Part shown: positions 4,629 to 21,881 of the stretch, in pieces
Layout of the letters: every line of letters starts with the position of its first letter
Numbering within the stretch: position 1 is the first letter of the stretch
Notes under the pieces: generated by a model
Databases searched by the model: none
What the model saw: the letters and a program-made list of their open reading frames with translations, nothing else
What the model was told of the DNA's origin: nothing
Made by a program: the position numbers and the translations under genes
IMG/VR virus record: IMGVR_UViG_2671180357_000006
Coordinates: 1-21,881 of that record
DNA: 21,881 nt
Reading direction: 5' to 3' (one strand)
Origin: a virus
Taxonomy: Duplodnaviria > Heunggongvirae > Uroviricota > Caudoviricetes

Positions 4629-4643
4629 CGGTACACTCCTTCC

Positions 4644-4672
4644 AAAAAGTAAGGCGTCCGCAGACGCCTTAC
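4644..4672 (-). terminator. rho-independent terminator downstream of the SSB-like gene
   Basis: Perfect 10-bp stem GTAAGGCGTC / GACGCCTTAC with a 4-nt loop, followed on the minus strand by TTTTT; 17 bp after the stop at 4689. Confidence 0.65.
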
Positions 4673-4688
4673 TGGTCACGTTATGGGA

Positions 4689-5705: not shown

Positions 5706-5824
5706 GTATTTCTCCTTGTTGTGATTGTGGCCATTGGCGCTATGCGCATTGGGCGTTCGTTTGTTCGTGGCTCTTTCGAGCGAGAAGAATGATAGATCAG
5801 TACTTACTTACTATATAGCATAAA

Positions 5825-6298: not shown

Positions 6299-6365
6299 GT
6301 TGGAATCAGGCGGTGGAGCTGGCTTGCTGAAGAACTTGAGGGCTGACGTAGATAAGCTGATGTAA

Positions 6366-6926
6366 ATGGGGATAATTCTGATAACCTGTAGTCAGTACTG
6401 CGTAGTCGCAGATGCTCTGTATAGCCACGGTTGCGATGATGCGCTCATTTGCTACTACGGAAACTCAGTGTATGTAGAATTTGACCGAGAAGCTAAATCT
6501 TTAGATGAAGCAATCGAATCGGCAATCCTTGATATTGAAACAGCAGGCATTGGCGCAGTGGTGGAATCGGTAGATTCAGCACTGGTAGGCTTGAGCGATA
6601 TTGCTCAACTCTCTGGCTTAACGCGCCAGGCTATTACTCTGCTTAAAGACGGATTACGTGGCAAAGGTGATTTTCCTTGCCCTGTTCAGCGTATCAGCGG
6701 TCAGTCTCCACTCTGGGACTGGGCGGAAGTCGCTAAATGGTTGAACGACTGCGGTCGTCTTGACAGCAAAGACGAAAAAGCACGGGAAGAACTGGTGCGT
6801 AACGCGCGCACATTGAGTACGTGGAATCTTGCCCTGCGTATAAGATCGTTGGGCGACATTCATGAGGTGGAGAGAGTTACTCGCTCACTCAGTCACTCGC
6901 AAGACTGCGAAAAAATTTGCGCATAA
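6366..6926 (+). CDS. putative HTH DNA-binding protein, possibly HicB-like antitoxin fold (186 aa)
   Basis: The only plus-strand gene inside the minus-strand module. Central segment GLSDIAQLSGLTRQAITLLKDG looks like a helix-turn-helix; the N-terminal part loosely resembles HicB-type antitoxins. Ends at a strong bidirectional terminator. Confidence 0.5.
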   Translation: MGIILITCSQYCVVADALYSHGCDDALICYYGNSVYVEFDREAKSLDEAIESAILDIETAGIGAVVESVDSALVGLSDIAQLSGLTRQAITLLKDGLRGKGDFPCPVQRISGQSPLWDWAEVAKWLNDCGRLDSKDEKAREELVRNARTLSTWNLALRIRSLGDIHEVERVTRSLSHSQDCEKICA

Positions 6927-6953
6927 AACCCGCCAAATGGCGGGTTTTTCTTT
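6925..6953. terminator. bidirectional rho-independent terminator between convergent genes
   Basis: AAAA-CCCGCC-AAAT-GGCGGG-TTTTTCTTT: 6-bp GC stem with an A-run on one side and a T-run on the other, lying between the plus-gene stop (6926) and the DnaE stop (6955). Confidence 0.8.
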
Positions 6954-6954
6954 A

Positions 6955-9900
6955 TTACTTATTTATCGTCTCCGCAATATCAGTCAGAATGGCCTCCAGT
7001 CGCTCTCCTTCTTCCGGTCGGAAGTAAAGGATATTCGGGTTAAATCCGTAGAAAACGGTCGCATCCAGCTCCGGCAGATACTCTTTGCGTCCAACCAGGT
7101 CGGATGGTTTGCTCTTGTTGTTGAAGAGCGACGTCGCCCGGCTGCCACACGTCAGCACATAGGTCGGACGCACCAGATTTATCTCTTCACGCATAAAGTC
7201 GGTGAACTGGCCGATCTCGTCTTTGGTGTAGTCCTTCTCTTTGTCCTTCACCTTTTTGCACACGCCTGTGACGTAGAGATCGCCCATGCGCAGATCGCCT
7301 GCAGTAAGCAACTTCGCCTTAAAGTCGTCGTAGCCGTTCTCCATGAAGTAGCCGGTACGCCCATCATTGCCGTTCGCGTTGTCCAGAATGACCATGATTT
7401 TCGGCTTAATGCCAATGCTTGGGCGGATCAGGTCGTCTCCCAGACCCATTTCGGCCGCCATGCGAGTCATCAGTACATTCACCTCGGCAGAGCGCTTAGG
7501 GTTCATCTCGAACGGTCGAGAGGCTTTTACAGCGTCGATCACCAGATTGCCCATCAACTCTGCCTGGTCGCGCAGTCGTTCCGGATCTGTCGCTGGCAGA
7601 CTGCCAGACTCAATCGATGCGAACGCACCGACTTTTTGCAGCGACTCGCGTACCCGGCTGTTACATGCACGCTTCTCGACCGCTTCCTCAAATTGCGCCA
7701 GTGATTCGAATTTGCCGCCAACTTTCTCACGCGCTCTCATGATGGCCTGGCAACCATTCTCAGAGCAGCCTTTCACAGCAGAGAATGGTGCATACAGAAC
7801 CTGACTGCCGTCTTCCAGCGTGCGGATCTCAATTCGGTTAGATGACACGTTAACGTCTGGTGGCAATACGCGAATGCCATAGGTCAGCGCATCTTTAACC
7901 AGCCCCTGGTGCTTATCCTCGCCCAGAATGGTGAGCGCAGCAGCGAAGAACTCAGCAGGGTAATGTGTCTTTAACCACATAGACTGATAGCTGATTAAAG
8001 AATAAGCAACACTGTGTGATTTGTTGAAGGCATATCCACCGAACTTCTCAAAGGCGTCCCATATTTCTTGGGCTTTTTTCTTACTGAGACCTTCTTGTTC
8101 AGAGACGATCTCCACGTAGTCTATGCCGTCACTAATAGCCTCGCTGTAGCTTCTACGCTTACCGTCTGAGCAATCCAGTTTTGCGTGTTTGTGAACCTCT
8201 ACAGTACCTCCATTTTTGAGTGACAGTGTCACCCAGCCTGCTTGTGCTCGTTCTACAAAATCGCTGCCGATCGCTTTCATCTTATCCATGTTCTTTTTAC
8301 CGATAGCGGAACGCAGAGCGTCTGCTTCGGCCATAGAGAACCCGGCAAGTACTCGGGAACTTTGCATGATTTGTTCCTGATAGAGCAAAACACCATTAGT
8401 CTCCCGGGTGACTTCCTCAAGACGCGGATGAATTGAATGTGGAGCCATGAAGCCTTTGGCCACGGAGACATAGTCGTCCAACATGCCGGATTGGATCGGG
8501 CCAGGTCGGAAGAGTGCGGTCGTGGCGACAACGGTTTTGAAGCTCATTGGCTCAATGCCACCGCCCAGATCTTTAAGCAGCTTGCGCATGGGGCCGGACT
8601 CCAGCTGGAATACGCCCTGCGTGTACCCTGCAGCGAACCCATCCAGAACCTTACGATCGTCCAGTGGAATAGCATCGAGATTGATGTCTTCCCCGGTACT
8701 CTCTTTGATGTAGCGTTTCGCGCTATCCAGCAGATCGAGCGTTGCCAGACCGAGAACGTCCAGCTTAATCAGCCCCATCGCCTCGCAGTAACGTTTATCG
8801 AACGCAATACAGCGAGCGTTGCCACGCAGCTCGACGGGCGTGCGCTCTACCAGTGGAACGCCAGCGACGATCATCCCCGCAGCGTGACGACCAAAACCAC
8901 GCATCAGGCTTTGCAGCTTACACGCCGCTTTGAACGCTTCCGGGTTTTTCGTGGCGTATTTGTCCAGGCTGGCCAGTTGCTCGCGCAGCTCTTCCAGAGA
9001 CAGGCTATCGTCTTCCAGATTCTTGAACTCTTTGGATACCGCCATATCCGCAGCGTCGACACCGTAAATACGCGCAGTGTCTCGCAGCGCAGAAGCGGCG
9101 CCCAGATAGGTGAAGTTTGGAATACCGGCAACGTAATCTTCGCCATAGCGTTCATTCAGATACTCGATCACCTCATGACGACGTGCCTGGCTGAAGTCCA
9201 GATCCGCATCCGGTAAGTCAAGACGTTCAGGGTTGATGAAACGCTCAAACAGAAGACCGTGACGGATAGGATCGACGTTGGTTATGCCTATGCACCACGC
9301 CACCAGAGAACCGGCAGAGGAACCACGACCTGGCCCAACCGGTATTCCTGTTTCACGGCAGTGATTCATCAGATCGCGTACCATCAGGAAGTAGCCACAG
9401 AAGCCCAGACGGGTCAGTGTGTCCATTTCGTACTTCAGTCGCTCAACATACACTCGGTGCTCAGAAGCCGGTGGTGTGTAGCCAAACTCTTTAGTAGTTA
9501 GACGCTTGCGTAGCCCCGCGACAGCCAGCTTCATCAGCGTTGCAGGCTCGTCGTCTGCCATCTTGGGCAGTGCTGGTGGCAGTTCATGCCAGCGCCATGT
9601 GCAGGCTTCAATAATGGTGTCCTGCGTTGTTGAGACCATTGCAGCTGTTACCGGTACGCCCATGCGAACGGAGAAGGCTTTCAGCGCTTCAAGGAGATGG
9701 CGACGACCATTAACAGCGTTATCTCGCTGGTGGGGGATGCGCAGACGATGCGGCTGGTCGATTTTGATGTTGTTCGTAACCATGTGCGCAATGTCTTTAA
9801 TGTCAGCGTCGTCGATCGCTTCGTAATAAGCGGGATAGAACGCCACTGGCTCTATTTTCAGTGCGCTCGCCACTTTCATCGCCCGGACGTTAATCTGGTC

Positions 9901-10461
9901 GTAGAATGGGGTAGGGTGCGGATAAACCACGCTGTAGAAGTTATCGCGTCCTCCAGCTGTCACCAGCGTCCCGATAATCTTTGCGAAGTCCCGGCGCTGG
10001 AATACACTGCCAATGTCGGACGTCAGCAGGATGATGTTGCCTTTGGCATATGCGGCCGCCAGCTGGTCAAGTGCCAGACGCGGAACAAAGTAGAATTGCT
10101 CGCGCTTGTTGGCTAAGGTCATCAGTTCGCACACGTCGCGATAACCTTGCTCATTCTTTATCAGTGCCGTGAAGCAGTAGCTTCGATCACGCACCAATGA
10201 TTCCATACATCCTCCTGACTCTTTCGCCAGGCGGGCGCGATGCTCGTATGTCGGATCGTCGACCACATTCAGCTTAACACCACAAATAACCGCCATGTCG
10301 TCGCCAGCGGCACGCTGCAGGGGGATCACACTGGCAATGTTCATGCTGTCAGCGGAAATGACAGCGGTGTAGCCAGCGTCTCTCGCGATTTTCACCGCGT
10401 TTTCTGCTTTTAGAGCTGACTCTCCCAGGGAGAAGTCAGTTCTGACCATCAGAGCCTTCAT
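6955..10461 (-). CDS. DNA polymerase III alpha-type (DnaE family, C-family polymerase), 1168 aa, with a non-canonical C-terminal domain
   Basis: Strong DnaE motifs: [10 protein letters not shown]...[27 protein letters not shown]...[21 protein letters not shown] (palm with catalytic aspartates), FRPGP, [42 protein letters not shown]. The N-terminal PHP-like region lacks the His pairs. Confidence 0.92.
   Translation of the reverse strand: [1168 protein letters not shown]
6958..7404 (-). other. C-terminal ~150-aa domain of the DnaE-like protein resembling a family-4 uracil-DNA glycosylase fold with degenerate catalytic motifs
   Basis: [18 protein letters not shown]...LYVTGVCKK...[17 protein letters not shown]...[14 protein letters not shown] aligns by eye with family-4 UDG (LVLVGEGPGEEEDKTGRPF...VYITNIVKCRPP...IVPLGAVAA...FPMFHPAYLLRNP); GEGPG is replaced by DNANG and HP by NP. 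It sits where bacterial DnaE has its OB-fold and tau-binding region. Confidence 0.55.
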
Positions 10462-10639
10462 GTGCTTTTACCTTTCTGGTTTTCTTGATTTTGTCATTGG
10501 GGAAGCCAACGAACTTCCCATACATCGAAATCGCAACCTCTTTGGCTGACTGGTGGCACTCGGGTCTATCCGGACATGCCAAACAAGCACTGCCAGTTTC
10601 AGACGCTGCGATAAGAGAGCCGAAACATCCTTTACGCAC
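10436..10639 (-). CDS. possible small Cys-rich protein (67 aa, GTG start)
   Basis: ORF filling the 180-bp gap between the CobS-like stop and the DnaE start; contains CLACPDRPECH; overlaps the DnaE start by 26 nt. Could instead be non-coding leader. Confidence 0.25.
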   Translation of the reverse strand: MRKGCFGSLIAASETGSACLACPDRPECHQSAKEVAISMYGKFVGFPNDKIKKTRKVKAHEGSDGQN

Positions 10640-10641
10640 GA

Positions 10642-11877
10642 TTAACCAAAGATCTTCTGAACCACTTCACGCGCTGCCTGTGCAGACGTGGATGGAAGTT
10701 TATTGATAAACGACTTTTCGATGCCGGCAGAGAAATCACCGCGCATCATTCCGATTTTGGCGGACAGCAGCAGCTCACGAGGCCCGATTGGCTGGCTAAT
10801 CTGATGCTTTTCATAACCTTCACGGATAAGATTCGCGAACTTCACCATCTTCTCGGCGTATTCGCGGATGACGCCTGCTTCAGCCAGCATGTTGACTTCT
10901 GCCTTCGTACTCATGTACTTCACGTTTGAAACAATGCCAAAACGCGAGAAGTTCGCTGCGTTCTGGATGTTTGTGCCTTGATAGAGACCTGTTTCGTCGC
11001 CAGAGCCGTTAGTGTTGCCAGTGCCAATGAAGGCAAAGCGTTTATGCGGGGTGATGCGGCGCCAGTCCGCAGTTGCCTCTTTGATGATCAGCGGCTCTCC
11101 TTCAAGAACTGGCTGATACACACCCAGAATCTGCGGGAACGCGAAGTCATATTCATCAGCGAGGTAAACCCAACCATTTTTCATCGCCAGCGCTAGTAAA
11201 CCCGGTTCGAAATAGGTGGAACCATCGCGAGCGAGGATCTGGCCTGTAACGTGCGCTTCCTCCATAGACGCCGTATGCTGGGCGCGGATCAGTGGTCGAT
11301 TTAGCAGGGCACATAGCTGCGTAGGAAGAGAAGATTTACCGGTTCCTGCATGGCCCCAGAGATAACCCGGGATTCCGATTTCCAGCATCATGAAGATGTC
11401 TTTAATCAGGTCGAAGTCGCCATACACATAGTTCTTCTTCGCTTCCGGTACGAACTCCGGATATGGCGTGTTGACGTTGACTGTCACCTGTAGTGGCTTT
11501 CCGCGTGGCGTTCCCAGCTCTTTGATCGTTATGCCAAGCAGCTCGTGCGCGGCCACCAGTTCGGTCTTGTATTCGACCGTTCCTGCGTAGCCCGGATGTG
11601 CGCTAATCTCCGCTACTTTTCCTTCGCCTGAATGCTTTTCGGCACGCTTCTCATTGAGTTTGGCCAGTGCCGTGCGAGAGATCGTTGGTTCATCTGGAAA
11701 CGCAGAGGTGTACATCTTCACCACTTCGTCCACGTCCAGACCCTTCGCAGACTCAGGAATATTCTCGCAACGGCCCATAGAGATATGGGATTTCAGGTAA
11801 TGAAAGGATTTGCCACACCACTTGCAGACGATGGCTTCCGGCAAATGTTCTTCTTGCTGTAGTGCAGTAGCGGTCAT
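10642..11877 (-). CDS. CobS/MoxR-like AAA+ ATPase with N-terminal zinc-finger-like extension (411 aa)
   Basis: Walker A GHAGTGKSS, Walker B region VYLADEYDFAFPQILGVYQPVLEG, sensor region TNIQNAANFSRF as in CobS/MoxR. N-terminal CKWCGKSFHYLKSHISMGRC Cys/His cluster. TAAGGA RBS upstream. Confidence 0.8.
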   Translation of the reverse strand: MTATALQQEEHLPEAIVCKWCGKSFHYLKSHISMGRCENIPESAKGLDVDEVVKMYTSAFPDEPTISRTALAKLNEKRAEKHSGEGKVAEISAHPGYAGTVEYKTELVAAHELLGITIKELGTPRGKPLQVTVNVNTPYPEFVPEAKKNYVYGDFDLIKDIFMMLEIGIPGYLWGHAGTGKSSLPTQLCALLNRPLIRAQHTASMEEAHVTGQILARDGSTYFEPGLLALAMKNGWVYLADEYDFAFPQILGVYQPVLEGEPLIIKEATADWRRITPHKRFAFIGTGNTNGSGDETGLYQGTNIQNAANFSRFGIVSNVKYMSTKAEVNMLAEAGVIREYAEKMVKFANLIREGYEKHQISQPIGPRELLLSAKIGMMRGDFSAGIEKSFINKLPSTSAQAAREVVQKIFG

Positions 11878-11974
11878 GTGTTTTTTCCTTACTGTTTGTC
11901 GTTCGTGGGGTATATCTTATATAAATATATTAGGCTGTATAGTAAGTGATTACTTATTTTTACGGGTAAAGCTA

Positions 11975-14206
11975 TTACCCAAGAATGATACGAGATAGCT
12001 CAGTGACAACTGACGGCCCTAACTCTTCTACGCTGTTTACCAGCGCGTAATTTTTGTAGAAACGTCGTGGCTCGTCGGTCAGAATCCCGATAGCCATCAG
12101 ATCGATGTCGCTCAAGGTCTCAATTTCTTTGGTGACGGTTCGTAAATGCTGATGGAATCCACTACCTGTAGCACATGGCTCCCCATCACTCATAACCAGC
12201 ATGATCTTTTTGTCCTCCATTCGCCCTGCAAACAGGGTAGCCAGTTGCGCGATACTCTCACCATCGACGTTATTGAGCAGGGGGAACGTCTCACATACGC
12301 ATCCCATGCGAGCACGGATCTCTGGAGAGTTTGCTTTCTCATTCCAGTTTTTGATAATGGGCAGCATGAGCGCCTCGAAGCGTGTAAACCCGCGCTTCGA
12401 CCTAGTTTCATAATCTGGGCTACCGAACGTGGTAAAGCCGGTGATGATGTTGGGGACATTGATACGATCTAAAGCATCCGTAATGGTATAGGCACTGGCT
12501 AGGGCCAGTTGAATCTTCACGCCATCCATTGAGCCGGACAAGTCGATGACCTGCTGGACACACGCGTTCACCGCTCTATGGTCTTCCTTCTTGCGGAACA
12601 CTCGGTCGTCGTTCATTGCCAGACGATACAGGCTCGCGCCATGTATCCGCCCACGCCTCTGACCAGGTATAAACTGAACTCGGTTGCGGCTGGCGATGGC
12701 CCGCTCTAGGTCTTTGGCCAGCGTCGAAGAAACGCCTGCAGACAGATGTTTTTCGATTTTCAGTTCAAAGAGTTTTCTGCCTTCTGGCACCATACGGTAG
12801 CGGTCGACTGGTGAGTGCATTGGTATTGCACCGAACGTCTTTCTGGTGCGCTTCACATGCTCTTCGGCTCCATCAATCAACCCGATAAAGTCGTATGATC
12901 GATCGTATGGCCGATAATCAGAAGGTGAGACGCTCATAAGCTCTTTGCTGATGGTGGCCGACAGTGCGTCTTCGGTCATTTCACCGATTCCGTCTTCCAT
13001 CTCGTCGAGCGCCTTTAGCGCCTCCTCCAGAGTCATTTCATCCGGCGCAGGAACAAAGCCAGACTCACTGTCTTTGGGCACTTCCGCACCATCTTTATTT
13101 TTTTTGCCTTCGACGTCTTCTTCTTCAGTTTCCCCACGATCAGTATCGGAGTCCTCACCGCCATCACCATCGGTGTCAGAGTCACTTGATTTCATGCCGA
13201 TAGCATCGGATTCTGGGGTGTCTCCTGACTCTTCGTGGCCTGCTTCTGTATATTTACTTTCTGTATCACTAATATCTTTAACGTGTGTAGGTAAGTCCTT
13301 ATCTAACGAATCAGGCAAATCGGAATCCCCAGAATCTTCCTCTTCTGATGCATCATCTTCTCGTTCTTCCTTGTCATCGCCTTCGCCTTTGGCAGGCTTA
13401 GATGCAGAGTCACCATGAGACGGTTCGTCACCTGATTCTGGCGTTTCCTCGGACTCGTCTTTGCTCTCCGACGGCTTTCTGGAAGATGATTTAAGTTCTG
13501 GTAATTTGCCCTCTGGCTTGTCTTTCATATCCTGCATGATTTGGGCTATAGCAGCAGCGACCTTCACGCAATCCTCAGTGTTCGACATATTGCGAACGGC
13601 CACGTCTATACCATGCTCCTTTAGTAAGGCTACCGGCCTCTCGATAAGGCGCCAGTGTTCTTCCATAAAATCGATGAAGGGGCTTTGTCCATCCCAGGCG
13701 CGGACGACCGGGCAAAGGAAGAATTTCAAAAACAATTCACGCTGGTCTCCGTGACAGGCTAAAACCGCTTCTGGTACTTTATTCCTGAAGTATTTGTCGA
13801 TAACCAGACTCTGTGTTGCAAGTAAATTACGCCGGGTTCCGTTAAAGACCTGCCCCATTCTGCGTTCAATAAAAACGTCTTCCAGCGCATTCCAAAGCCC
13901 CGTAGACGGAGCCTTTCCTCTTTCGTGCATCTGCATTGCGACTTTCGGTTCAGTAAAGAGAATATGGGCCACCTCATGGTCGAGAAAACCACGCACTGCG
14001 TTCATGAGGGTTGGCGACGCGTCGTCCGGTATAGATGGGATGTTTACCAGCACTGGTTCGCCGCGCCGGTTATAGCGGACATATGCTTCATTGCCTCGTT
14101 CTGCAACAGGTATCTGTTTACCTGAAAGCATCGCTACAACTCGTTTTACACAGTCGCGAAAATCCTGCACCTCTTTCAGTACAGCTTTGGTGGTTTTTTT
14201 GGACAT
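11975..14206 (-). CDS. CobT-like von Willebrand factor A (vWA) protein with HExxH motif and long acidic linker (about 744 aa from the RBS-supported start)
   Basis: C-terminal vWA domain with MIDAS DLSGSM and SDGEP; central ~145-aa Asp/Glu/Ser-rich low-complexity region; N-terminal LDHEVAHILF (HExxH). Start reassigned to the ATG at 14204-14206 preceded by AAGGGA; the track's ATG at 14275 lies inside an inverted repeat. Confidence 0.8.
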   Translation of the reverse strand: MSKKTTKAVLKEVQDFRDCVKRVVAMLSGKQIPVAERGNEAYVRYNRRGEPVLVNIPSIPDDASPTLMNAVRGFLDHEVAHILFTEPKVAMQMHERGKAPSTGLWNALEDVFIERRMGQVFNGTRRNLLATQSLVIDKYFRNKVPEAVLACHGDQRELFLKFFLCPVVRAWDGQSPFIDFMEEHWRLIERPVALLKEHGIDVAVRNMSNTEDCVKVAAAIAQIMQDMKDKPEGKLPELKSSSRKPSESKDESEETPESGDEPSHGDSASKPAKGEGDDKEEREDDASEEEDSGDSDLPDSLDKDLPTHVKDISDTESKYTEAGHEESGDTPESDAIGMKSSDSDTDGDGGEDSDTDRGETEEEDVEGKKNKDGAEVPKDSESGFVPAPDEMTLEEALKALDEMEDGIGEMTEDALSATISKELMSVSPSDYRPYDRSYDFIGLIDGAEEHVKRTRKTFGAIPMHSPVDRYRMVPEGRKLFELKIEKHLSAGVSSTLAKDLERAIASRNRVQFIPGQRRGRIHGASLYRLAMNDDRVFRKKEDHRAVNACVQQVIDLSGSMDGVKIQLALASAYTITDALDRINVPNIITGFTTFGSPDYETRSKRGFTRFEALMLPIIKNWNEKANSPEIRARMGCVCETFPLLNNVDGESIAQLATLFAGRMEDKKIMLVMSDGEPCATGSGFHQHLRTVTKEIETLSDIDLMAIGILTDEPRRFYKNYALVNSVEELGPSVVTELSRIILG

Positions 14207-14259
14207 TAGAATTCCCTTGTTGTTAAAACAATTTGTTTTCTGATGTGCGTAATTTATCA

Positions 14260-14292
14260 CTGTACGAACAGGCATCTAATCTGTTCGTACAG
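14260..14292. promoter_or_regulatory. perfect 12-bp inverted repeat (candidate operator) in the promoter region of the CobT/CobS/DnaE gene block
   Basis: CTGTACGAACAG-N9-CTGTTCGTACAG, 54-86 bp upstream of the CobT-like start, overlapping a plausible -35/-10 on the minus strand. Confidence 0.4.
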
Positions 14293-14310
14293 GCGCTAGA
14301 GAGGATGGGA

Positions 14311-14318
14311 GGGGGGGG
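14311..14318. repeat. G8 homopolymer tract (C8 on the coding strand of the flanking operon)
   Basis: Directly visible run of eight G between the stop of the 70-aa gene (14319) and the inverted repeat. Confidence 0.9.
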
Positions 14319-14531
14319 TTAAATTGTGCGGACGGCTACTGAACCGCAGCCGGTATTGATGAGAGTGAAGCACTTGCCCTTTAGCTCAAAGATGTATGCG
14401 GTTGCGTCTTTCATGTCAAGTAACAAAGACTTTGTTGGCAGTTCAGTGAGTATGGCTGCTGCCCCATCATCGTCAATTGAAATCGTATGTCCGACCTCAA
14501 GGGCGATCAAATTAGAAGTTATTTTTTTCAT
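14319..14531 (-). CDS. hypothetical small protein (70 aa)
   Basis: First gene transcribed leftward from the divergent AT-rich control region; GGA-type RBS; the antisense ORF 14326..14655 is less plausible. Confidence 0.4.
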   Translation of the reverse strand: MKKITSNLIALEVGHTISIDDDGAAAILTELPTKSLLLDMKDATAYIFELKGKCFTLINTGCGSVAVRTI

Positions 14532-14787
14532 TTCATATCATCCAACTGAACACGTAAATACCTTGCAATACTACTACCTATTGTATCAATACGGAATACT
14601 TATGTATCAAATACAACTTAGTTTTAAGTTCTTAAATGAGTTATTTTTTAGATAGTTGTCTATTAGTGAAGCCTTTTGCGGTCAGTAAACCTATGTAAAA
14701 AAATAGATAAGTCTTTACAACACTAACCTTTGATGTAATATCAGTAAGCACTTACCAAATAAAATCAAAACACGCAGGTTGATAATT

Positions 14788-15177
14788 ATGGCTACCAACG
14801 AAACAAAAGAAGCTAAAGTAAGTCGCTACGCTGCTTACATTGACGCTTTAATCGCGATTTCTCCGAAAAGCCAGGCGACCATCGCGAAAGAAGCAGGCTA
14901 TAAAAACCCTAACAATCTTTCACTTATCAAGAGCGGCAAAATCCCGCTTCCGATCGACAAGGTCAGAGCGTTGGCTAAAGCATTGGATGCCGATTCGGTC
15001 CGATTGATGCTAATGGTGCTGGAAGAGCGTCATCCAGAGCTGTTAGCGTTTTTTCGCGACGAAGGCACAGCCCCTCTGACTAAAGATGAAAAACTAGTTC
15101 TGGAAGCCTTCCGTCGACGTTTCGGTGACCAACGTGGTGCGTCGGAGCGGGTTGTTGAGGCAATCAAGTCGCTATGA
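14788..15177 (+). CDS. putative HTH transcriptional regulator (130 aa from ATG; the track's TTG start at 14779 is less likely)
   Basis: SQATIAKEAGYKNPNNLSLIKSGKIPLPIDKVRALAKAL looks like a helix-turn-helix; AGG 9 nt upstream of the ATG; transcribed divergently from the 70-aa gene across a 256-bp AT-rich region; stop overlaps the integrase stop. Confidence 0.6.
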   Translation: MATNETKEAKVSRYAAYIDALIAISPKSQATIAKEAGYKNPNNLSLIKSGKIPLPIDKVRALAKALDADSVRLMLMVLEERHPELLAFFRDEGTAPLTKDEKLVLEAFRRRFGDQRGASERVVEAIKSL

Positions 15178-16275
15178 GAAATTTACACGGATTAGCTCAG
15201 TAGCGAGTCGATCTCCCTTGAACTTATGATCTATCTCCTCTAAATCCTGTTTCTCTACGATTGATGCGATGTACGCCGAAAAACTGTTTAAGGCGTCTCG
15301 CATCTCGTCTATATAATCGTGTCGATCGTATACTCGATCTATCCCCTCAAGACTGTGGTTCATAATTTTGCGGGATACCTCCTGACTTATGCCTAACGCG
15401 GGGAAGTAACTACGCGCAGTACGACGCAAATCTCGGGGAGTAAATGGCTCAAGCTCCATCAACTCTGGACGTTCTAAAATCCTTCTCAACGCCTGTGATA
15501 TGGCCACCTTAGACATTGGCACATCCTCACCCTGTTTCTTGTTTGAAGGAACAAGCCACTGGCTGCCTTTTCCGTATTTGATCAGCTCCTCAACACATTT
15601 GCGCATTAGCGGGCTTAATGGTAACGAGTGCTGGCGAGCCGATTTATTCCTCGTTCCTTGATTCCATAAATTATATTCGAGGTTGAATTCTGATCTTTTA
15701 GCTCGGAGCACTTCATCTGGTCGTCTGGCCGCTACAAGACATAATCTGGCCGCCCACTTTGTACCCTCACATACGTTGAAGTAGTCCCATACATTCCAAA
15801 AGACCCAGACCTCTGCGTCGGTCAGTTTGCGCTCGCGAGGCGTGGGCTTCGCGCCACCGGCTACTCTGTTAAGCGACATATCGTTCAATGGGGATGTATC
15901 AATTAAGCCCTGAAATGCACACCAACTGAGAAACTGCTTCATCAGCGAGAACACACGTCTGCCCTGGACGATCTTGCCCTCAAGTATTAATGGGTTCACC
16001 AGCTGGTTGACTAAAACCCTACTAATGTCACTTACTTTTACTTCACAGATATGCGGCATTACATGTATCAAAATACAATGAACAGCTATTTCAGGTCGAC
16101 GTCTCGTTATCAGCAAAGATAAGCGAGTGAATAACATGAATGCGGAAGAAAACGACATGTCACCGTCGAAATTGGTGGTCGACACTGCTGACAAGCCGGA
16201 AGCGCGTTCGAGATACTCGATGGCTTCTCTAGAGGTGTTTTCTGCTGCGCGTGCTTTATCAAAAGTGTTTTTCAT
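15172..16275 (-). CDS. int: tyrosine recombinase / integrase, P4-type catalytic domain; N-terminal arm-binding domain not recognisable
   Basis: Catalytic-domain motifs LTDAEVWVFWN, RLCLVAARRPDEVLRAKRSEFNL, TPRDLRRTARSY, IMNHSLEGIDRVYDRHDY (R..H-x-x-R..Y). The first ~70 residues do not resemble the usual P4-type N-terminus. Confidence 0.85.
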   Translation of the reverse strand: MKNTFDKARAAENTSREAIEYLERASGLSAVSTTNFDGDMSFSSAFMLFTRLSLLITRRRPEIAVHCILIHVMPHICEVKVSDISRVLVNQLVNPLILEGKIVQGRRVFSLMKQFLSWCAFQGLIDTSPLNDMSLNRVAGGAKPTPRERKLTDAEVWVFWNVWDYFNVCEGTKWAARLCLVAARRPDEVLRAKRSEFNLEYNLWNQGTRNKSARQHSLPLSPLMRKCVEELIKYGKGSQWLVPSNKKQGEDVPMSKVAISQALRRILERPELMELEPFTPRDLRRTARSYFPALGISQEVSRKIMNHSLEGIDRVYDRHDYIDEMRDALNSFSAYIASIVEKQDLEEIDHKFKGDRLATELIRVNFS

Positions 16276-16303
16276 AGTCCACTCACTGAGTGAAGCCTGT
16301 TTT

Positions 16304-16323
16304 TACTGTATTTATAAACAGTA
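16304..16323. promoter_or_regulatory. LexA (SOS) box-like palindrome over the putative integrase promoter
   Basis: TACTGTATTTATAAACAGTA matches the gammaproteobacterial consensus TACTGTATATATATACAGTA at 18 of 20 positions (CTGT-N8-ACAG). It lies 29 bp upstream of the integrase ATG, abutting a -35 TTGATC, 16-bp spacer, -10 TAATAT on the minus strand. Confidence 0.55.
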
Positions 16324-16372
16324 TATTAGGCCTAAGTTTTGTATGATCAACAGTAAAATAGACTGTTTTTGA

Positions 16373-16407
16373 AAATGATTCCATACCTTACAAGTATGGA
16401 ATCATTT
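16373..16407. repeat. perfect 14-bp inverted repeat / hairpin in the integrase-cassette intergenic region
   Basis: AAATGATTCCATAC-N7-GTATGGAATCATTT. No clean U-tract on either strand, so terminator, recombinase-binding site and att core are all possible. Confidence 0.4.
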
Positions 16408-16574
16408 ATATAGCTTACGTAAATTCTGAATAAATTATGTAGACAAACCATCTTAAACGCTAAATAGTAAAAAGCGCCTAATAACGCCAACTTTGGAATG
16501 CCATCTGAGCCAGATTGATGAGAATGATTTGTTAGAAGAAAAAGAATGATGAAGAAGATGACGATCGCTAAAGT

Positions 16575-16991
16575 TCAGCTAGAATGGAAACCTTCTGCGA
16601 CTTCAGCGAAGTAGCTGAGCAACCTAGTATCTCTTGCTGGCATACGATCGTGAGCTGGAGTGACTAGCCCCATCAGCAAAAAACGCCCGCTATCCCACAT
16701 GTGCTCGGTATAAACGAGATAGTGGTTTGAGGTTCGGTTGTAGTTCTCTTGCCTTGCGTTCCAGGTAAGCTGGAAATGCAAATTGACGTGAATATGCTGG
16801 ACATTAGCATCAACGGCGAACGGCGGGAAGTCAAATGGTGCATCTCGTCCAAGAAGATTAGATGGTGCGCCAGTTGATTTGTAAGTAATGAACTCGGATT
16901 TGAGCTGACTTTCTAGGTCAGGGTAAACGACAAAAGTGGGCTGAAAAAAATCATCCCACGTAACTTGACTGTATTCAGCCGTTAATGCCAT
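16575..16991 (-). CDS. hypothetical protein (138 aa), second gene of a two-gene cassette
   Basis: ORF with ordinary composition; start overlaps the stop of the upstream 182-aa gene by 10 bp (translational coupling). No recognisable motif. Confidence 0.5.
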   Translation of the reverse strand: MALTAEYSQVTWDDFFQPTFVVYPDLESQLKSEFITYKSTGAPSNLLGRDAPFDFPPFAVDANVQHIHVNLHFQLTWNARQENYNRTSNHYLVYTEHMWDSGRFLLMGLVTPAHDRMPARDTRLLSYFAEVAEGFHSS

Positions 16992-17530
16992 TTAGCCGCA
17001 GCCTTGTTGCCAGTCTCTAATAGATGGTTCATGGCTAAAAGGTTGACACCAGAGTCACGCACTACAGAAGTGCGTGTAATCTGATCAATCAGATTGAGAT
17101 AGTTTTTGGTCGCAATACTGACCATTTTAATAGCCTTAAAAAACGCAAACTCAACAGTGTTTTTTTCGTAAGACATGATGACGTCTTTTTCAGGTAACAT
17201 CAAAACAAAAGATTCTGCGATACCGGCTACATGAATAGTTTGATTCTTAATTTCTTCCGCTACTTTGATAGCAGCAAAGAAGTCAGTGTCAGCATAATGA
17301 GCAAGTTCAGCGCGGCTTGAACGCAGTTCTTTAGCCAATTCATTGAGAGCAGCTGTAAGATCACTGATGTCGGTTTTGTTGACTCTAGCGCCCATCTCAT
17401 AAACCCGTTCGACAATCGTAGGCTGACACGCAACCGCTTTGGGTTGCGGCTGGATACTGGCAAGAACCAGTGCCACTGCTGCCTGCAAATGCTGGATTTT
17501 AAATTTCACGATAGACTCCATAATCGTCAT
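16982..17530 (-). CDS. hypothetical protein (182 aa), first gene of a two-gene cassette
   Basis: ORF downstream of the tRNA terminator, co-oriented with the 138-aa gene. No recognisable motif. Confidence 0.5.
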   Translation of the reverse strand: MTIMESIVKFKIQHLQAAVALVLASIQPQPKAVACQPTIVERVYEMGARVNKTDISDLTAALNELAKELRSSRAELAHYADTDFFAAIKVAEEIKNQTIHVAGIAESFVLMLPEKDVIMSYEKNTVEFAFFKAIKMVSIATKNYLNLIDQITRTSVVRDSGVNLLAMNHLLETGNKAAAKWH

Positions 17531-17609
17531 TTCTCGACGAAGCGTAGCATTCTACTACTGAACTTAACTATAAGCTAAAAAAAGTTGGTTGCATATGCGA
17601 CTTGATAGC

Positions 17610-17631
17610 AAAAAGGGGCCGAAGCCCCTTT
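17610..17631 (-). terminator. rho-independent terminator downstream of the tRNA
   Basis: Minus-strand reading gives GGGGC-TTCG-GCCCC followed by TTTTT (GC stem with a UUCG tetraloop). Confidence 0.65.
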
Positions 17632-17705
17632 GGATTTTGCGCTGAAAAAAGTGTTGCTACGATGCTTAGAAGCAATGGTTAAAAAACGTCTGCCGTGTCT
17701 ATCAC

Positions 17706-17780
17706 AGCGCTGAACGGTCTGGCGACATTTGCGGAGTCTTTCGTTCGGACGGTGATGGCGAATCCAAACCGTTCAGCGCT
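17706..17780. repeat. 13-bp perfect inverted repeat flanking a 49-bp spacer, directly 3' of the tRNA
   Basis: AGCGCTGAACGGT (17706-17718) and ACCGTTCAGCGCT (17768-17780); the tRNA CCA end is at 17785-17787. Confidence 0.5.
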
Positions 17781-17784
17781 ATGT

Positions 17785-17859
17785 TGGCGATGGTGGGTGG
17801 ACTCGAACCACCGACCAGTTGATTAACAGTCAACCGCTCTACCACTGAGCTACACCATC
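17785..17859 (-). tRNA. tRNA-Asn (anticodon GTT)
   Basis: Minus-strand sequence GATGGTG-TA-GCTC-AGTGGTA-GAGC-G-GTTGA-CTGTTAA-TCAAC-TGGTC-GGTGG-TTCGAGT-CCACC-CACCATC-G-CCA folds as a canonical cloverleaf with perfect 7-bp acceptor, 5-bp anticodon and 5-bp T stems, a TTCGAGT T-loop and encoded CCA. Confidence 0.88.
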
Positions 17860-17952
17860 ATTTTCGCGGCGGTACTAGCTTATGGACAACCAGGCAGCCA
17901 GAAACTTTCCCGTAACTTGCACTTTACGTTAGTGCCAGACGAGGTATGTGGC

Positions 17953-17968
17953 TCGCTCATATGAGCGA
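17953..17968. repeat. 16-bp perfect palindrome TCGCTCATATGAGCGA
   Basis: Self-complementary 16-mer centred on CATATG, about 95 bp upstream of the tRNA 5' end and 39 bp outside the transposon IR. Confidence 0.5.
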
Positions 17969-18006
17969 AGATCTCGAATCTTTCTCGGTGGTTGATTGCC
18001 GTTAGA

Positions 18007-18044
18007 GGGGGAACCGCAGAATTCGGAAAAAATCGTACGCTAAG
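18007..18044 (+). repeat. 38-bp terminal inverted repeat of the Tn1721-like transposon (outer end at 18007)
   Basis: GGGGGAACCGCAGAATTCGGAAAAAATCGTACGCTAAG: Tn21-family IR signature including the EcoRI site known from Tn1721 ends. Flanking 5 bp outside are TTAGA. Confidence 0.85.
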
Positions 18045-18144
18045 CTAACGGTGTTCTCGTGACAGCTCTTTGACTAGGCTTTCTAAGGCCATTCTGATAG
18101 CCCTGACTTCCTGAAAAGCCATGGCTAAAATTTGTGCGGCTAAA

Positions 18145-18176
18145 AGGGATAACCGATGGTAAAGTAAGTTATCCCT
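18145..18176 (-). terminator. hairpin 3' of mcp; weak candidate terminator
   Basis: 9-bp stem AGGGATAAC / GTTATCCCT with a 14-nt loop, about 20 bp after the mcp stop; only TTTA follows on the minus strand. Confidence 0.35.
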
Positions 18177-18195
18177 GTCGAGATACTGAAAAGCG

Positions 18196-19773
18196 TTATC
18201 CTCGTTTTTCCCAAAACTGTTTTGCCAGTTCGCTCAGAGCGCTAGTTAACTGAGCGACAGATTTCGCACTTTGCAAATTATTCTGCCCGGTCTGTACATT
18301 GGTATCAGCAGCATCGCGTATATTGATAATACTGCGGTTTATGTCTTCACTTACTGCTCCCTGCTGCTCGACCGCAGTCGCTATTTGCGCGTTCATGTCG
18401 GTAATTTCGTTAACGCGTTGGCCAATTCCATCAAGAGCTGTAGCTGCTTCCTCTGCGTGAGCTACACTCGTGTGCGCTTGCCGACTACTTTGCTCCATGA
18501 CTGTAACAGCGGATTGCGCTCGCTCTTGTAGAGCGCTGATCATGCTTTGAATATCCGTTGTCGATTGCTGTGTGCGAGCAGCAAGACTGCGAACCTCATC
18601 GGCGACAACAGCAAAACCACGCCCCTGCTCACCAGCACGCGCGGCCTCAATTGCTGCGTTGAGTGCCAACAAATTCGTTTGCTCGGCGATCCCTCGTATA
18701 ACGTCAAGAACTTTTGATATCTCGTTACTTTGACCTTCAAGCTCATGAATAACCTGAGTGGCTTGCCTAATTTCACCTTCAAGGGCAGTGATTGACTGGC
18801 TTGTGTGGGCTACCAGACGCTGGCCAGATGCCGTCTCAGTGTCTGCTCTTCCGGCCGCATCTGCAGCATGCTGTGCATTGCTCGCAACCTCTTGAATGCT
18901 TGCCACCATTTGGTTTACTGCCGTTGCTATTTGATCTGTCTCTGCCTGCTGCTCAACTGTAAGTACATTGCTTGACTCAATATCCTTTAGTAGGCCTCGG
19001 GTGTGTTCGCTAAGCCGATTTGATGCATCACCTATGCGACCTACTATGGCGCCTGTTTCAGCTTGCATCATTCGTAAAGCAAACTCTATTTGGCCAAACT
19101 CATCGGTGCGCCCAGTGTAGAGGGATTGACTTAATGGGTTATTGGAAATATTCCTGGCTCTTTCAACCAGTCTTCCAAGAGGAGAGAGAATAGCCAAAAC
19201 ACTAACAGAGCTTAAGCTTCCTGACATTAAAGTGGCTAACAATAAGCTGCTTATTGATGTATCAGTAAGCATGCCGGCAGCCATTGCGCTTGATATAATA
19301 CTACCCCATATGAGCAAGAGTATTTTCACGGAAAAGCTAGCAGCCAATTTCGGCCTCGCGGCCTTCCCGCTTCTCAATTGAGCATATAATTTTTCCGCAG
19401 CCAAAACCTGCTCAGGTTCAGGCTTGGTCCTTACAGACTGGTATTCAACAATCGAACCATTCTTAGCTATTGGCGTTACATAAGCACTTACCCAATAGTG
19501 GTCGCCATTTTTACAGCGATTTTTTACTAGCCCCATCCATGAGCGGCCAGATTTTAATGTACTCCACATATGCTCAAATGCAGCAGGCGGCATATCTGGG
19601 TGTCTTACGATGTTGTGAGGCTGGCCTAATAGTTCTTCCTCAGTGAAACCACTGATTTTAATGAAGTCAGGATTAACGTATGTGATATGGCTTTGAGGGG
19701 AGGTAGTCGAAAGAATATTGGCATCTTTTGGGAGTTCTAAGTTTCGACCCGTCACTGGTAAATTCTGGCGCAT
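18196..19773 (-). CDS. mcp: methyl-accepting chemotaxis protein with N-terminal PAS domain (Aer-like); transposon passenger gene (525 aa)
   Basis: N-terminus [75 protein letters not shown] parallels the E. coli Aer PAS region; the MCP signalling domain has [32 protein letters not shown]; hydrophobic segment in the middle; GAGG RBS upstream. Confidence 0.9.
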
Positions 19774-19924
19774 AAGAACCTCAAGGGTTGGCTGTTTTAT
19801 TTTATTGTTTTCGGCATTAAGCCCAATTTCTTGAGCGTTACGATAAAGCTAGCATGGAAACGATAGGTGCAAGCAAGTTAAGGGTTGCATCGCGCATGTC
19901 AATCTAGGCTATACCCTAACTTGA

Positions 19925-20075
19925 TGTCAGGCAGGGCCGCGCCGCTTCGTCAGAATAGAGTCTGCTTTCCCATTTTTTGACACATGCCCGCGAAGGTTAT
20001 AGATTTCAGCCTGACAGAAATGGGCTTTGAGGCACAACGGAACAGAAAGTGCACTTAAGCCGCCTTCAACCAAGG
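19925..20075. promoter_or_regulatory. res (resolution) site and tnpR promoter region of the transposon
   Basis: Clustered imperfect TGTCA/TGACA-type half-site pairs (TGTCAGGCAGG...CGTCAG, CGTCAGAATAGAGTCTG...TTGACA, TGACACATGCCC...CAGCCTGACA) between mcp and tnpR, as expected for Tn21-family res subsites; followed by an AAGGAG RBS before the tnpR GTG. Confidence 0.5.
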
Positions 20076-20082
20076 AGACATC

Positions 20083-20643
20083 GTGCAGGGGCACCGCATC
20101 GGCTACGTCCGGGTCAGCAGCTTTGACCAGAACCCGGAACGCCAGCTGGAACAAACCCAGGTGAGCAAGGTGTTCACCGACAAGGCATCGGGCAAGGACA
20201 CCCAGCGCCCCCAGCTCGAAGCGCTGCTGAGCTTCGTCCGCGAAGGCGATACAGTGGTGGTGCGCAGCATGGATCGGCTGGCCCGCAACCTCGATGACCT
20301 GCGTCGCTTGGTACAGAAGCTGACTCAGCGCGGCGTGCGCATCGAGTTCCTGAAGGAGGGCCTGGTGTTCACTGGCGAGGACTCGCCGATGGCCAACCTG
20401 ATGCTGTCGGTGATGGGGGCCTTCGCTGAGTTCGAGCGCGCCCTGATCCGCGAGCGGCAGCGTGAGGGCATCGCCTTGGCCAAGCAGCGTGGCGCGTACC
20501 GGGGCCGCAAGAAAGCCCTGTCCGATGAGCAGGCTGCTACCCTGCGGCAGCGAGCGACGGCCGGCGAGCCCAAGGCGCAGCTTGCCCGCGAGTTCAACAT
20601 CAGCCGGGAAACCCTCTACCAGTACCTCCGCACGGACGACTGA
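20083..20643 (+). CDS. tnpR: serine resolvase TnpR (Tn21/Tn1721 subgroup), GTG start
   Basis: MQGHRIGYVRVSSFDQNPERQLE... with the catalytic serine region, and C-terminal HTH ISRETLYQYLRTD; near-identical by recollection to Tn1721/Tn501-type resolvase. Confidence 0.95.
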   Translation: MQGHRIGYVRVSSFDQNPERQLEQTQVSKVFTDKASGKDTQRPQLEALLSFVREGDTVVVRSMDRLARNLDDLRRLVQKLTQRGVRIEFLKEGLVFTGEDSPMANLMLSVMGAFAEFERALIRERQREGIALAKQRGAYRGRKKALSDEQAATLRQRATAGEPKAQLAREFNISRETLYQYLRTDD

Positions 20644-20646
20644 CAC

Positions 20647-21881
20647 ATGCCGCGTCGCTTGATCCTCTCGGCCACGGAGCGGGACACCCTGCTTGCGCTG
20701 CCGGAAAGCCAGGATGACCTGATCCGCTACTACACCTTCAACGACTCCGACCTGTCGCTGATCCGCCAGCGACGCGGCGACGCCAACCGCCTCGGCTTCG
20801 CCGTGCAGCTCTGCCTGCTGCGCTACCCCGGTTACGCGCTGGGAACCGACAGCGAGCTGCCCGAGCCGGTCATCCTGTGGGTGGCGAAGCAAGTCCAGGC
20901 CGAGCCGGCGAGCTGGGCAAAGTACGGCGAGCGCGACGTGACCCGTCGCGAGCATGCCCAGGAACTGCGCACCTACCTGCAACTGGCCCCGTTCGGCCTG
21001 TCCGACTTCCGCGCCCTGGTGCGCGAGCTAACCGAGCTGGCCCAGCAGACCGACAAAGGCTTGCTGCTGGCCGGTCAGGCCCTGGAGAGCCTACGGCAGA
21101 AACGACGCATCCTGCCGGCGCTGAGCGTGATTGACCGGGCCTGCTCGGAAGCCATTGCGCGAGCCAATCGGCGGGTCTACCGCGCCCTGGTCGAACCACT
21201 CACGGACTCGCATCGGGCCAAGCTGGACGAGCTGTTGAAGCTCAAGGCCGGCAGCAGCATCACCTGGTTGACCTGGCTGCGCCAGGCACCGCTGAAACCC
21301 AACTCTCGGCACATGCTGGAACACATCGAGCGGCTGAAGACATTTCAGTTGGTGGACTTGCCCGAAGGCCTGGGCCGGCACATCCACCAGAACCGCCTGC
21401 TCAAGCTGGCCCGCGAGGGTGGGCAGATGACGCCCAAAGACCTCGGTAAGTTCGAGCCGCAGCGCCGCTACGCGACCCTGGCCGCCGTGGTGCTGGAGAG
21501 CACCGCGACCGTGATCGATGAGCTGGTCGATCTGCATGACCGCATCCTGGTCAAGCTGTTCAGCGGCGCGAAGCACAAGCATCAGCAGCAGTTCCAGAAG
21601 CAGGGCAAGGCGATCAACGACAAGGTGCGCCTGTACTCCAGGATCGGCCAGGCGCTGCTGGAAGCGAAGGAAAGCGGCAGCGACCCCTATGCCGCCATCG
21701 AGGCGGTGATTCCCTGGGACGAGTTCACCGAGAGCGTCAGCGAGGCCGAGCTGCTGGCCCGGCCGGAAGGCTTCGACCACCTGCACCTGGTCGGCGAGAA
21801 CTTCGCCACCCTGCGCCGTTACACGCCGGCCTTGCTGGAGGTGCTGGAACTGCGCGCCGCGCCGGCCGCGCAAGGCGTGCT
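20647..21881 (+). CDS. tnpA: Tn3-family transposase TnpA, 5' partial (first ~411 codons; runs off the window end)
   Basis: ATG at 20647, 3 nt after the tnpR stop; translation [44 protein letters not shown]...[12 protein letters not shown]...[10 protein letters not shown]... matches the Tn21-family TnpA N-terminus. Absent from the ORF track because no stop is reached. Confidence 0.92.

Follow-up and report, generated by a model that had tools for sequence, protein, structure and literature searches.

The transposons Tn1721 and Tn1722 correspond to GenBank entry X61367 (Allmeier et al. 1992, Gene 111:11, as cited in PMC7319535 and PMC7096625). To go by the passages of PMC7319535, PMC13367494 and PMC12217951 that cite Allmeier 1992 and Rogowsky 1985, the identity of Tn1721, the Aer-like character of its methyl-accepting chemotaxis protein (MCP) and the module boundary at its res region are established. 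Phage-plasmids of the SSU5 type have likewise been described as hosts of mobile resistance genes, and all resistance-gene insertions in them have been placed at one locus, flanked by genes of the PhoH and DNA ligase families (PMC9600943, Pfeifer et al. 2022).

The stretch of DNA analysed here (21,881 nucleotides, or 21.9 kb, hereafter the window) is one whole draft contig of the short-read assembly GCA_001268285.1, in which a transposon of the first kind adjoins a backbone of the second. The explanation we favour, with a probability of roughly 0.9, is that a canonical Tn1721/Tn1722 transposed into non-coding DNA upstream of the tRNA-Asn gene of a phage-plasmid, at the pentanucleotide TTAGA. 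The insertion falls in the published resistance-insertion locus of SSU5-like phage-plasmids. What it adds is little, namely another known resistance transposon in a known plastic locus of such a replicon; it supports the published view that phage-plasmids gather transposon-borne cargo at one site.

The transposon and its modules

Judged by its sequence, the segment 18007–21881 is the left 3.9 kb of Tn1721/Tn1722, a Tn3-family element of the Tn21 subgroup. It is 99.9% identical to thousands of plasmid copies, and its inverted repeat, protein domains and module order all agree with the Tn1721/Tn1722-like identity given in the preliminary description. Two of the 3875 bases differ from a complete Tn1722 copy (the references used were complete plasmid-borne copies, not X61367 itself): one at 19681, which is synonymous and lies in mcp, and one at 20264, by which residue 61 of TnpR is R in the window and H in the reference. 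The R61 variant is private to this contig, the exact protein being on record in one contig only, the window itself. The modules follow one another as left inverted repeat, mcp (reverse), res, tnpR and tnpA, with tnpR and tnpA codirectional, in the order and orientation of the annotated complete copies and of the published description. The window differs from these in holding the left 3.9 kb only, which is compatible with either Tn1722 (5.6 kb) or the longer, tet(A)-bearing Tn1721 (11.1 kb). The element is a long-known tetracycline-resistance transposon, and its finding is real but ordinary and already known.

The passenger gene mcp (orfI; 18196–19773, minus strand) encodes a 525-aa Aer-like MCP with Pfam matches to PAS_3, HAMP and MCPsignal. 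The protein is laid out as PAS, membrane hairpin, HAMP and signalling domains, with two hydrophobic segments within residues ~142–197. It has the same amino-acid sequence as the MCP annotated as WP_001323889.1 in the reference copy, which carries the same gene. Comparison with the solved ‘Aerotaxis receptor’ (structures 31cj and 8dik, which we take to be the E. coli Aer protein) gave E = 2.8e-65 and 56% identity over the PAS region. The stretch R57-H58-P59-D60 is kept in the window's MCP, and R57, H58 and D60 are presumably the FAD-binding residues of E. coli Aer. The passenger had been called Aer-like from the outset, and the PAS identity, the R57-H58-P59-D60 stretch, the HAMP domain and the MCP signalling domain uphold this; the domain set and the presumed FAD-binding residues are consistent with the layout of an Aer-type receptor. 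In contrast to E. coli Aer, the gene is transposon-borne, and conservation is poor in the part that links PAS to HAMP. A literature search returned nothing linking Tn1721 with aerotaxis.

Between mcp and tnpR lies res. A 28-bp imperfect palindrome (19898–19925, with 10 of 14 arm positions matching) is the putative res site I, with the crossover probably at its centre (19911/19912). The remainder of res, comprising accessory sites II and III, and the region upstream of tnpR (together 19926–20082; GC ~50%) are conserved with elements of the Tn21 subgroup. In the hybrid of Tn21 urf2 and Tn1721 tnpR found in pNDM-5-0083, the sequence is unrelated to the window on the left and identical to it from 19911 onwards (breakpoint 19910/19911), and other Tn21-family relatives start aligning at 19905–19906. 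Strand exchange is known to occur in the middle of site I (PMC13367494, PMC12217951). Tn21-subgroup hybrids of this kind have res site I from 19911 and the tnpR-tnpA arm in common with the window, whereas the window keeps the original mcp arm and not a mer or integron arm. Modular exchange at res, as put forward in the preliminary description, agrees with natural hybrids that switch partner at res site I, and is already textbook knowledge for the Tn21 subgroup. Two further candidates, H144 and H152, had been considered as combinations of the mcp arm with a different tnpR-tnpA but proved to be cut short by IS26 and IS6100.

The compositional mosaic that had been described for the element is real: GC content is 46.9% in 18007–19905 and 64.9% in 19906–21881, with an intermediate value (50%) in the res interval 19906–20082, and at third codon positions mcp has 41% GC, against 86% for tnpR and 88% for tnpA. 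The position first given for the break (19900–19930) stands only in part, since the maximum-likelihood change point in GC falls at 20048–20094, at the start of tnpR, whereas the homology breakpoint does lie inside that interval. The mosaic probably goes back to an old modular origin of the element: a low-GC arm (left repeat and mcp) meets a high-GC arm (tnpR and tnpA) at the putative res site I, the point where present-day hybrids of the Tn21 type are joined.

The gene tnpR (20083–20643, plus strand) encodes a 186-aa serine resolvase (Pfam Resolvase and HTH_7). It is followed by tnpA (20647–21881, plus strand), of which the window holds the N-terminal 411 of 988 codons, encoding part of a Tn3-family transposase (Pfam DUF4158; NCBIfam transpos_Tn3, matched over positions 2–391 of 954). 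Residues 1–411 of TnpA show no amino-acid difference from the reference WP_001138014.1, and the DDE domain falls outside the contig. The NCBI annotation pipeline calls the Tn1721/Tn1722 transposase ‘TnAs1 family’.

The contig ends with the first 21 bp (21861–21881, plus strand) of a 1786-bp segment which Tn1721 carries in duplicate, an internal repeat made up of a truncated tnpA and a third inverted repeat. In pNDM-5-0083, the module tetR-tet(A)-pecM-truncated tnpA becomes identical to Tn1722 at the equivalent of 21861. That the contig stops at the start of this repeat suggests that the 1786-bp segment occurs two or more times in the genome, as would be the case for a full Tn1721, and tet(A) would then be present as well. 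The break could also be due to a second copy of the element, a partial one at some other place in the genome, and not to Tn1721's own repeat.

The left junction and the insertion locus

The element begins with the 38-bp left terminal inverted repeat of Tn1721/Tn1722 (18007–18044, plus strand; GGGGGAACCGCAGAATTCGGAAAAAATCGTACGCTAAG), which includes an EcoRI site at 18019–18024. The tRNA-Asn gene has its 5′ end ~147–148 bp from the start of the transposon at 18007, and both the repeat with its EcoRI site and the distance of 148 bp were located correctly in the preliminary description. The repeat occurs once in the window (0 occurrences expected by chance). It agrees at every base with the left repeat of a complete Tn1722 copy of 5640 bp, in which the right repeat matches the left at 35 of 38 positions and which is flanked by the 5-bp duplication TTTTT. 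The junction 18006/18007 coincides exactly with the outermost base of the repeat.

The empty site is seen in pGS04EC-1, where it reads GCCGTTAGA/TTCTTCGATC (the slash marks the insertion point), with the window 100% identical up to 18006. The neighbouring 175-aa backbone protein has exact matches at 10 loci, and at every one of these the insertion position is empty. The pentanucleotide TTAGA (18002–18006) is presumably the left copy of a 5-bp target-site duplication. The junction itself was seen in the window only: the exact left-junction 37-mer had 0 matches in collections of genomes, metagenomes and viral contigs, and a BLAST search with a query across the junction turned up no record that has it among E. 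coli genomes and plasmids. A sigma-70 scan of the interval between the tRNA gene and the left repeat yielded no minus-strand candidate for a promoter of the tRNA gene.

We propose that the element entered by replicative transposition, in which TnpA would work on the 38-bp repeats to form a cointegrate, TnpR would resolve the cointegrate at res, and a 5-bp duplication would be left behind. The target would have been TTAGA, in the non-coding DNA upstream of tRNA-Asn on an SSU5/pHCM2-like phage-plasmid. For an intact element, this predicts CTTAGCGTACGATTTTTTCCGAATTCTGCGGGCTCCCC followed by TTAGA and TTCTTCGATC at a distance of 5.6 or 11.1 kb downstream of 18007; in short form, the intact right end would read CTGCGGGCTCCCC+TTAGA+TTCTTCGATCTTATTGG, with the right repeat and then TTAGATTCTTCGATC.

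Independent insertions of the Tn1721 family are found in related phage-plasmids, more distant from the tRNA gene by ~58 and 841 bp, and a third related insertion, in K. pneumoniae pNCRE-61-121.9, has the clean duplication TACAT. The SSU5/pHCM2-like resistance plasmids (pNCRE-61-121.9, Enterobacter pKM69_DHA and E. coli I3 p1) have the same backbone as the window and an insertion of the same transposon family, also between tRNA-Asn and the DNA ligase gene. The window differs from them in its insertion point after TTAGA, which is unique among the records searched, and in having no visible resistance gene. Altogether, four plasmids were seen to have an insertion, each at a point of its own and each with the left repeat facing the tRNA gene, which is the only orientation that the search could detect. 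The region from the tRNA gene to the DNA ligase gene is a plastic, insertion-tolerant locus of SSU5-like phage-plasmids. We consider it unlikely that the ~0.9 kb between tRNA-Asn and the DNA-ligase gene cluster is an actively preferred target of the Tn1721 family and not merely a tolerant one; were this the case, a phage virion would routinely take tet(A) and an Aer-like receptor from host to host.

The alternative that survives best, which we regard as possible but doubtful, is that the window shows a remnant or a rearranged resistance region, in which the left junction is genuine and the right part was truncated or replaced. Such a change could have been brought about by IS26 or IS6100, for instance, by recombination at res or by a cointegrate left unresolved, and no right repeat with TTAGA would then stand beside the backbone. 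Related plasmids offer parallels: in I3 p1 and pKM69_DHA the element was cut by IS26, with the left repeat and mcp alone kept, and in CP100967.1 a complete Tn1722 lies in CobT without a duplication, in a 324-kb replicon that also carries DNA foreign to the phage-plasmid. Among the 5000 best-scoring records, moreover, 344 cover at least 80% of the query, and since most database copies are fragments, a later truncation on the right side of the window's element is plausible. Against this stand the 3875 bases of the window's element, which are uninterrupted and near-identical to intact copies, and the position of the contig break, at the start of a known repeat and not at the end of an IS. Insertion of a canonical element with a probably intact right end is for us the better account.

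The phage-plasmid backbone and its tRNA gene

Sequence comparison assigns the host replicon of the transposon to the SSU5/pHCM2 type of phage-plasmids, and not to a chromosomal tRNA island site. Positions 1–18006 are 99.5% identical over 18 kb to the circular ~106-kb E. coli plasmids pBL12EC-1 and pGS04EC-1. All 22 records covering at least 80% of these positions are plasmids, and those examined were typed as IncFIB. Identity to phage SSU5 is ~91% where segments align, and the order dnaE, AAA ATPase, CobT and tRNA-Asn is common to the phage and the window's backbone. The tRNA gene, dnaE and the genes for the integrase, YafO toxin, CobT and AAA ATPase form a collinear part of the backbone of circular ~106-kb SSU5/pHCM2-like phage-plasmids. 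Structural and lysis genes of the phage would fall outside the 21.9-kb contig.

The tRNA-Asn gene (GTT; 17785–17859, minus strand; predicted with ARAGORN) lies in this backbone, outside the transposon, and since the backbone is 99.5% identical to SSU5/pHCM2-like phage-plasmids, it belongs to the phage-plasmid itself. Annotations of pBL12EC-1, pGS04EC-1 and phage SSU5 include the same gene, and we take its sequence to be unlike those of the E. coli chromosomal asn tRNAs.

In the preliminary description, two unrelated mobile elements were thought to be stacked at one tRNA locus, that is, an integrase island integrated at a chromosomal tRNA-Asn gene with the transposon beside it. We now consider this highly improbable. 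Its ‘integrase-bearing element’ is a variable block of the backbone (14280–17784, minus strand), outside the transposon, which consists of small ORFs, a possible repressor, a tyrosine recombinase (15172–16275) and a YafO toxin pair (16575–17509), with Pfam matches to Phage_integrase and YafO_toxin. The recombinase gene does stand 1.5 kb from the 3′ end of the tRNA gene, and the 3.5-kb block is missing from phage SSU5, where CobT and the tRNA gene are adjacent (~165 bp apart). However, the 22 plasmid records speak against a chromosomal locus, and the block is found in E. coli phage-plasmids and is collinear in many phage-plasmids; in related plasmids the phage genes PhoH, Gp49 and GrxA stand between integrase and tRNA. 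In addition, no repeat of the tRNA 3′ end was found in 13800–18100 or in the whole window (with up to 3 mismatches allowed), and the reading as a tRNA-integrated island was dropped because no att-like repeat of that end bounds the integrase block. A tRNA gene beside an integrase and a transposon need not mean a chromosomal island; the tRNA gene here belongs to a mobile element.

Least probable of all is that the junction 18006/18007 is an assembly chimera of a phage-plasmid contig and a transposon from elsewhere. The assembly is indeed a draft from short reads, and the contig has repeats at both ends. The join, however, stands at the outermost base of the inverted repeat and interrupts the backbone sequence, continuous in all other respects, at one point only; such a join is expected from transposition and not from repeat collapse. 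Within Tn1721, moreover, the left 3.85 kb has no second copy.

Identity and extent of the transposon

The 38-bp left inverted repeat GGGGGAACCGCAGAATTCGGAAAAAATCGTACGCTAAG, with an EcoRI site inside it, starts at position 18007 and occurs once in the window. The features beyond it are an MCP ORF of 525 aa (18196–19773, minus strand), a tnpR ORF of 186 aa (20083–20643) and an open tnpA frame running from 20647 to the window end, which Pfam/NCBIfam assign as follows: the first is a receptor of PAS-HAMP-MCP type, the second a serine resolvase, and the third the N-terminal portion of a transposase of the Tn3 family. Database comparison gave 99.9% identity of 18007–21881 to thousands of plasmids, whose annotations name a PAS-domain MCP, a recombinase and a ‘TnAs1 family’ transposase. 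As reference for the base comparison we used the complete copy (5640 bp) in Salmonella plasmid pSE79-2359, whose two terminal repeats match each other at 35 of 38 positions and which has the 5-bp duplication TTTTT on either side. The left repeats of the two copies are identical, and only two differences were found over 3875 bases: a synonymous one in mcp (19681) and one in tnpR codon 61 (20264), encoding R in the window and H in the reference. Among indexed public assemblies, the exact TnpR protein with R61 is recorded in one contig only, the window's own. The order of Tn1721, as relayed in later papers, is inverted repeat, mcp, res, tnpR, tnpA, inverted repeat, tetR, tetA, pecM, truncated tnpA and inverted repeat, with Tn1722 as its first 5.6 kb (Allmeier 1992 via PMC7319535, PMC7096625). 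Given two differences in 3875 bases, the identical left repeat and this published layout, 18007–21881 is identified by its sequence as the canonical Tn1721/Tn1722, as opposed to a relative of that element. The preliminary description had proposed a Tn1721/Tn1722-like transposon and located the EcoRI-containing repeat at 18007; both were confirmed, and alignment to the reference placed the passenger at the same position, with mcp next to the left repeat.

The window is the entire draft contig CXXS01000086.1 (assembly GCA_001268285.1), with a repeat boundary at both ends. Position 1 is where IS1A adjoins the backbone in pBL12EC-1, the closest complete plasmid. In plasmids with tetR(A)-tet(A)-pecM-truncated tnpA, identity to Tn1722 starts at the equivalent of 21861; from there to the repeat extends the 1786-bp segment duplicated inside Tn1721, and the window ends 21 bp into it (21861–21881). 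Short-read contigs end in this way at repeats. Because the contig stops 21 bp into a segment duplicated in Tn1721, we infer that the genome has this segment two or more times; a full Tn1721 is the simplest explanation of the stop, though other explanations exist. The window's copy would carry tet(A) and probably has an intact right end. Several related phage-plasmids, including I3 p1, pKM69_DHA and CP100967.1, have a rearranged right side, which lends some weight to the view that the window's element is rearranged there as well, a view we consider less likely than not.

Compositional mosaic, res and the passenger gene

The strong compositional mosaic noted earlier was evident both in overall GC content (46.9% over 18007–19905 vs 64.9% over 19906–21881) and at third codon positions (41% in mcp vs 86% in tnpR and 88% in tnpA). 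The best single GC change point lies at 20048–20094, at the tnpR start codon, and the intergenic res region is intermediate (50%). Matching to Tn21-subgroup relatives (76–80% identity) starts at 19905–19906, as it does for many 99.7%-identical hybrids with Tn21 urf2 on the other side. Base-by-base alignment of the pNDM-5-0083 hybrid revealed unrelated sequence through 19910 and identity from 19911 on. A 28-bp imperfect palindrome (19898–19925; 10 of 14 arm positions by count) is centred on this switch point, 19911. In res site I, strand exchange by serine resolvases takes place at the 2 bp in the middle (PMC12217951, PMC13367494); according to the same two papers, the site was defined with Tn501/Tn1721 hybrids (Rogowsky and Schmitt 1984 and 1985). 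Since the homology switch coincides with the palindrome centre, the palindrome fits res site I. The proposed break at 19900–19930 thus holds as a module boundary (hybrid switch 19910/19911), but as a GC step it was placed about 150 bp too far left. Modular exchange mediated by res is likewise upheld, natural hybrids changing partner at the centre of the putative site I; such arm exchange is a long-established feature of the Tn21-subgroup/Tn1721 family.

That Tn1721 carries a chemotaxis-like passenger gene, mcp, was already known in 1992. The product of mcp in the window matched the solved ‘Aerotaxis receptor’ over residues 7–476 (E = 2.8e-65) and the isolated aerotaxis-receptor PAS domain (E = 9e-41); residues 7–109 share 56% identity with the aerotaxis receptor and retain the R57-H58-P59-D60 motif, of which we take R57, H58 and D60 to be FAD-binding residues of E. 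coli Aer. Because of these matches, the retained motif and two hydrophobic segments within about residues 142–197, together with HAMP and signalling domains, the protein has an Aer-type layout, and the earlier term ‘Aer-like’ is justified at the sequence level.

The insertion and its locus

In an uninterrupted plasmid the empty site reads ...GGTTGATTGCCGTTAGA|TTCTTCGATC..., and through 18006 the window agrees with it at every base. As this match ends exactly where the outermost base of the repeat starts, the 18006/18007 junction reads as a signature of transposition, with TTAGA as the expected target duplication. Transposition in the Tn1721 family is replicative: TnpA works at the repeats, the intermediate is a cointegrate, and a 5-bp duplication remains once TnpR has resolved that intermediate at res. 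The window contains a precise left junction, intact left repeat, mcp, res, tnpR and the 5′ part of tnpA, with an empty site in a relative; replicative transposition followed by TnpR resolution would have produced its insertion.

Independent Tn1721-family insertions between tRNA-Asn and the ligase gene were found in other SSU5-like phage-plasmids (loci L001, 12461; L003, 13247; L025, 1018–12525); orientation is the same in all four, the window's included, by a query able to detect that orientation only. In E. coli I3 p1 and Enterobacter pKM69_DHA, IS26 has cut the element down to the left repeat and mcp; compared with the window's site, its distance from the tRNA is greater by about 58 bp in the former and by 841 bp in the latter. 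The element of K. pneumoniae pNCRE-61-121.9, in the same region, has its two repeats, a clean duplication of 5 bp (TACAT) and blaCTX-M-14 inside it. All resistance-gene insertions in SSU5-like phage-plasmids were reported to occupy a single locus, with neighbours including PhoH and DNA ligase families (Pfeifer et al. 2022, PMC9600943), and the window's insertion falls in it; element, passenger gene, modular structure and insertion locus have all been described previously. In E. coli ET350, the 324-kb replicon CP100967.1 includes a related phage-plasmid with a complete Tn1722 inside CobT (L010, 14542–20181). No target duplication flanks this Tn1722, and the arrangement resembles a cointegrate, unresolved or recombined, fusing the phage-plasmid to another plasmid.

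Phage-plasmid flanks and tRNA-Asn

Circular E. coli plasmids of 106 kb, among them pBL12EC-1 and pGS04EC-1 (the latter typed by MOB-suite as IncFIB, non-mobilizable), match positions 1–18006 over the full length at 99.5% identity. They and the window have in common dnaE, the genes for an AAA ATPase, a CobT-like protein and a tyrosine recombinase, the YafO toxin pair and the same tRNA-Asn. The sole tRNA of the window, tRNA-Asn(GTT) (17785–17859, minus strand), is presumably unlike E. coli chromosomal asn tRNAs in sequence; its 5′ end lies 148 bp from the left repeat, the distance originally reported. Such plasmids have been assigned to the pHCM2/SSU5 phage-plasmid family (PMC8085198). The DNA flanking the transposon is non-chromosomal. 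Salmonella phage SSU5 has dnaE, AAA, CobT and tRNA-Asn in the same order, but lacks a 3.5-kb block (about 14280–17784; possible repressor, tyrosine recombinase, YafO toxin pair), CobT and tRNA-Asn being about 165 bp apart (L005, 6207–6372). Many phage-plasmids of E. coli, Enterobacter and Klebsiella have this block, some with PhoH, Gp49 and GrxA genes between it and tRNA-Asn, and phages Cyrano, CMS-2020a and PhiR41_1 have it at 76–80% identity; it may serve as a module for lysogeny or maintenance. A direct repeat of the tRNA-Asn 3′ end bounding the block was looked for and not found.

The preliminary description, sound overall in its observations, the transposon and res, erred in the tRNA context. 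Its picture of two unrelated mobile elements at one tRNA locus is not supported, because the block varies among phage-plasmids, phage genes separate it from the tRNA in some of them and the tRNA-end repeat is absent; the flanks are phage-plasmid DNA and the integrase-bearing block is a variable part of them.

A consensus scan of 17860–18006, from the tRNA 5′ end to the transposon end, for sigma-70-like promoters gave none in the orientation of the tRNA. If tRNA-Asn normally needs read-through from upstream leftward genes, the insertion would substitute read-through from mcp. The two genes run in the same direction. Directly 3′ of the tRNA is a 20-nt inverted repeat (17703–17722/17764–17783; 90% complementary, arms 41 nt apart), and a terminator-like hairpin lies at 17708–17692 (minus strand). 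Elsewhere, a 779-aa ORF (1076–3415, minus strand) is a LAGLIDADG family homing endonuclease according to the annotation of its relatives; as 779 aa is unusually large for a free-standing enzyme of this kind, it may be a host protein with an intein.
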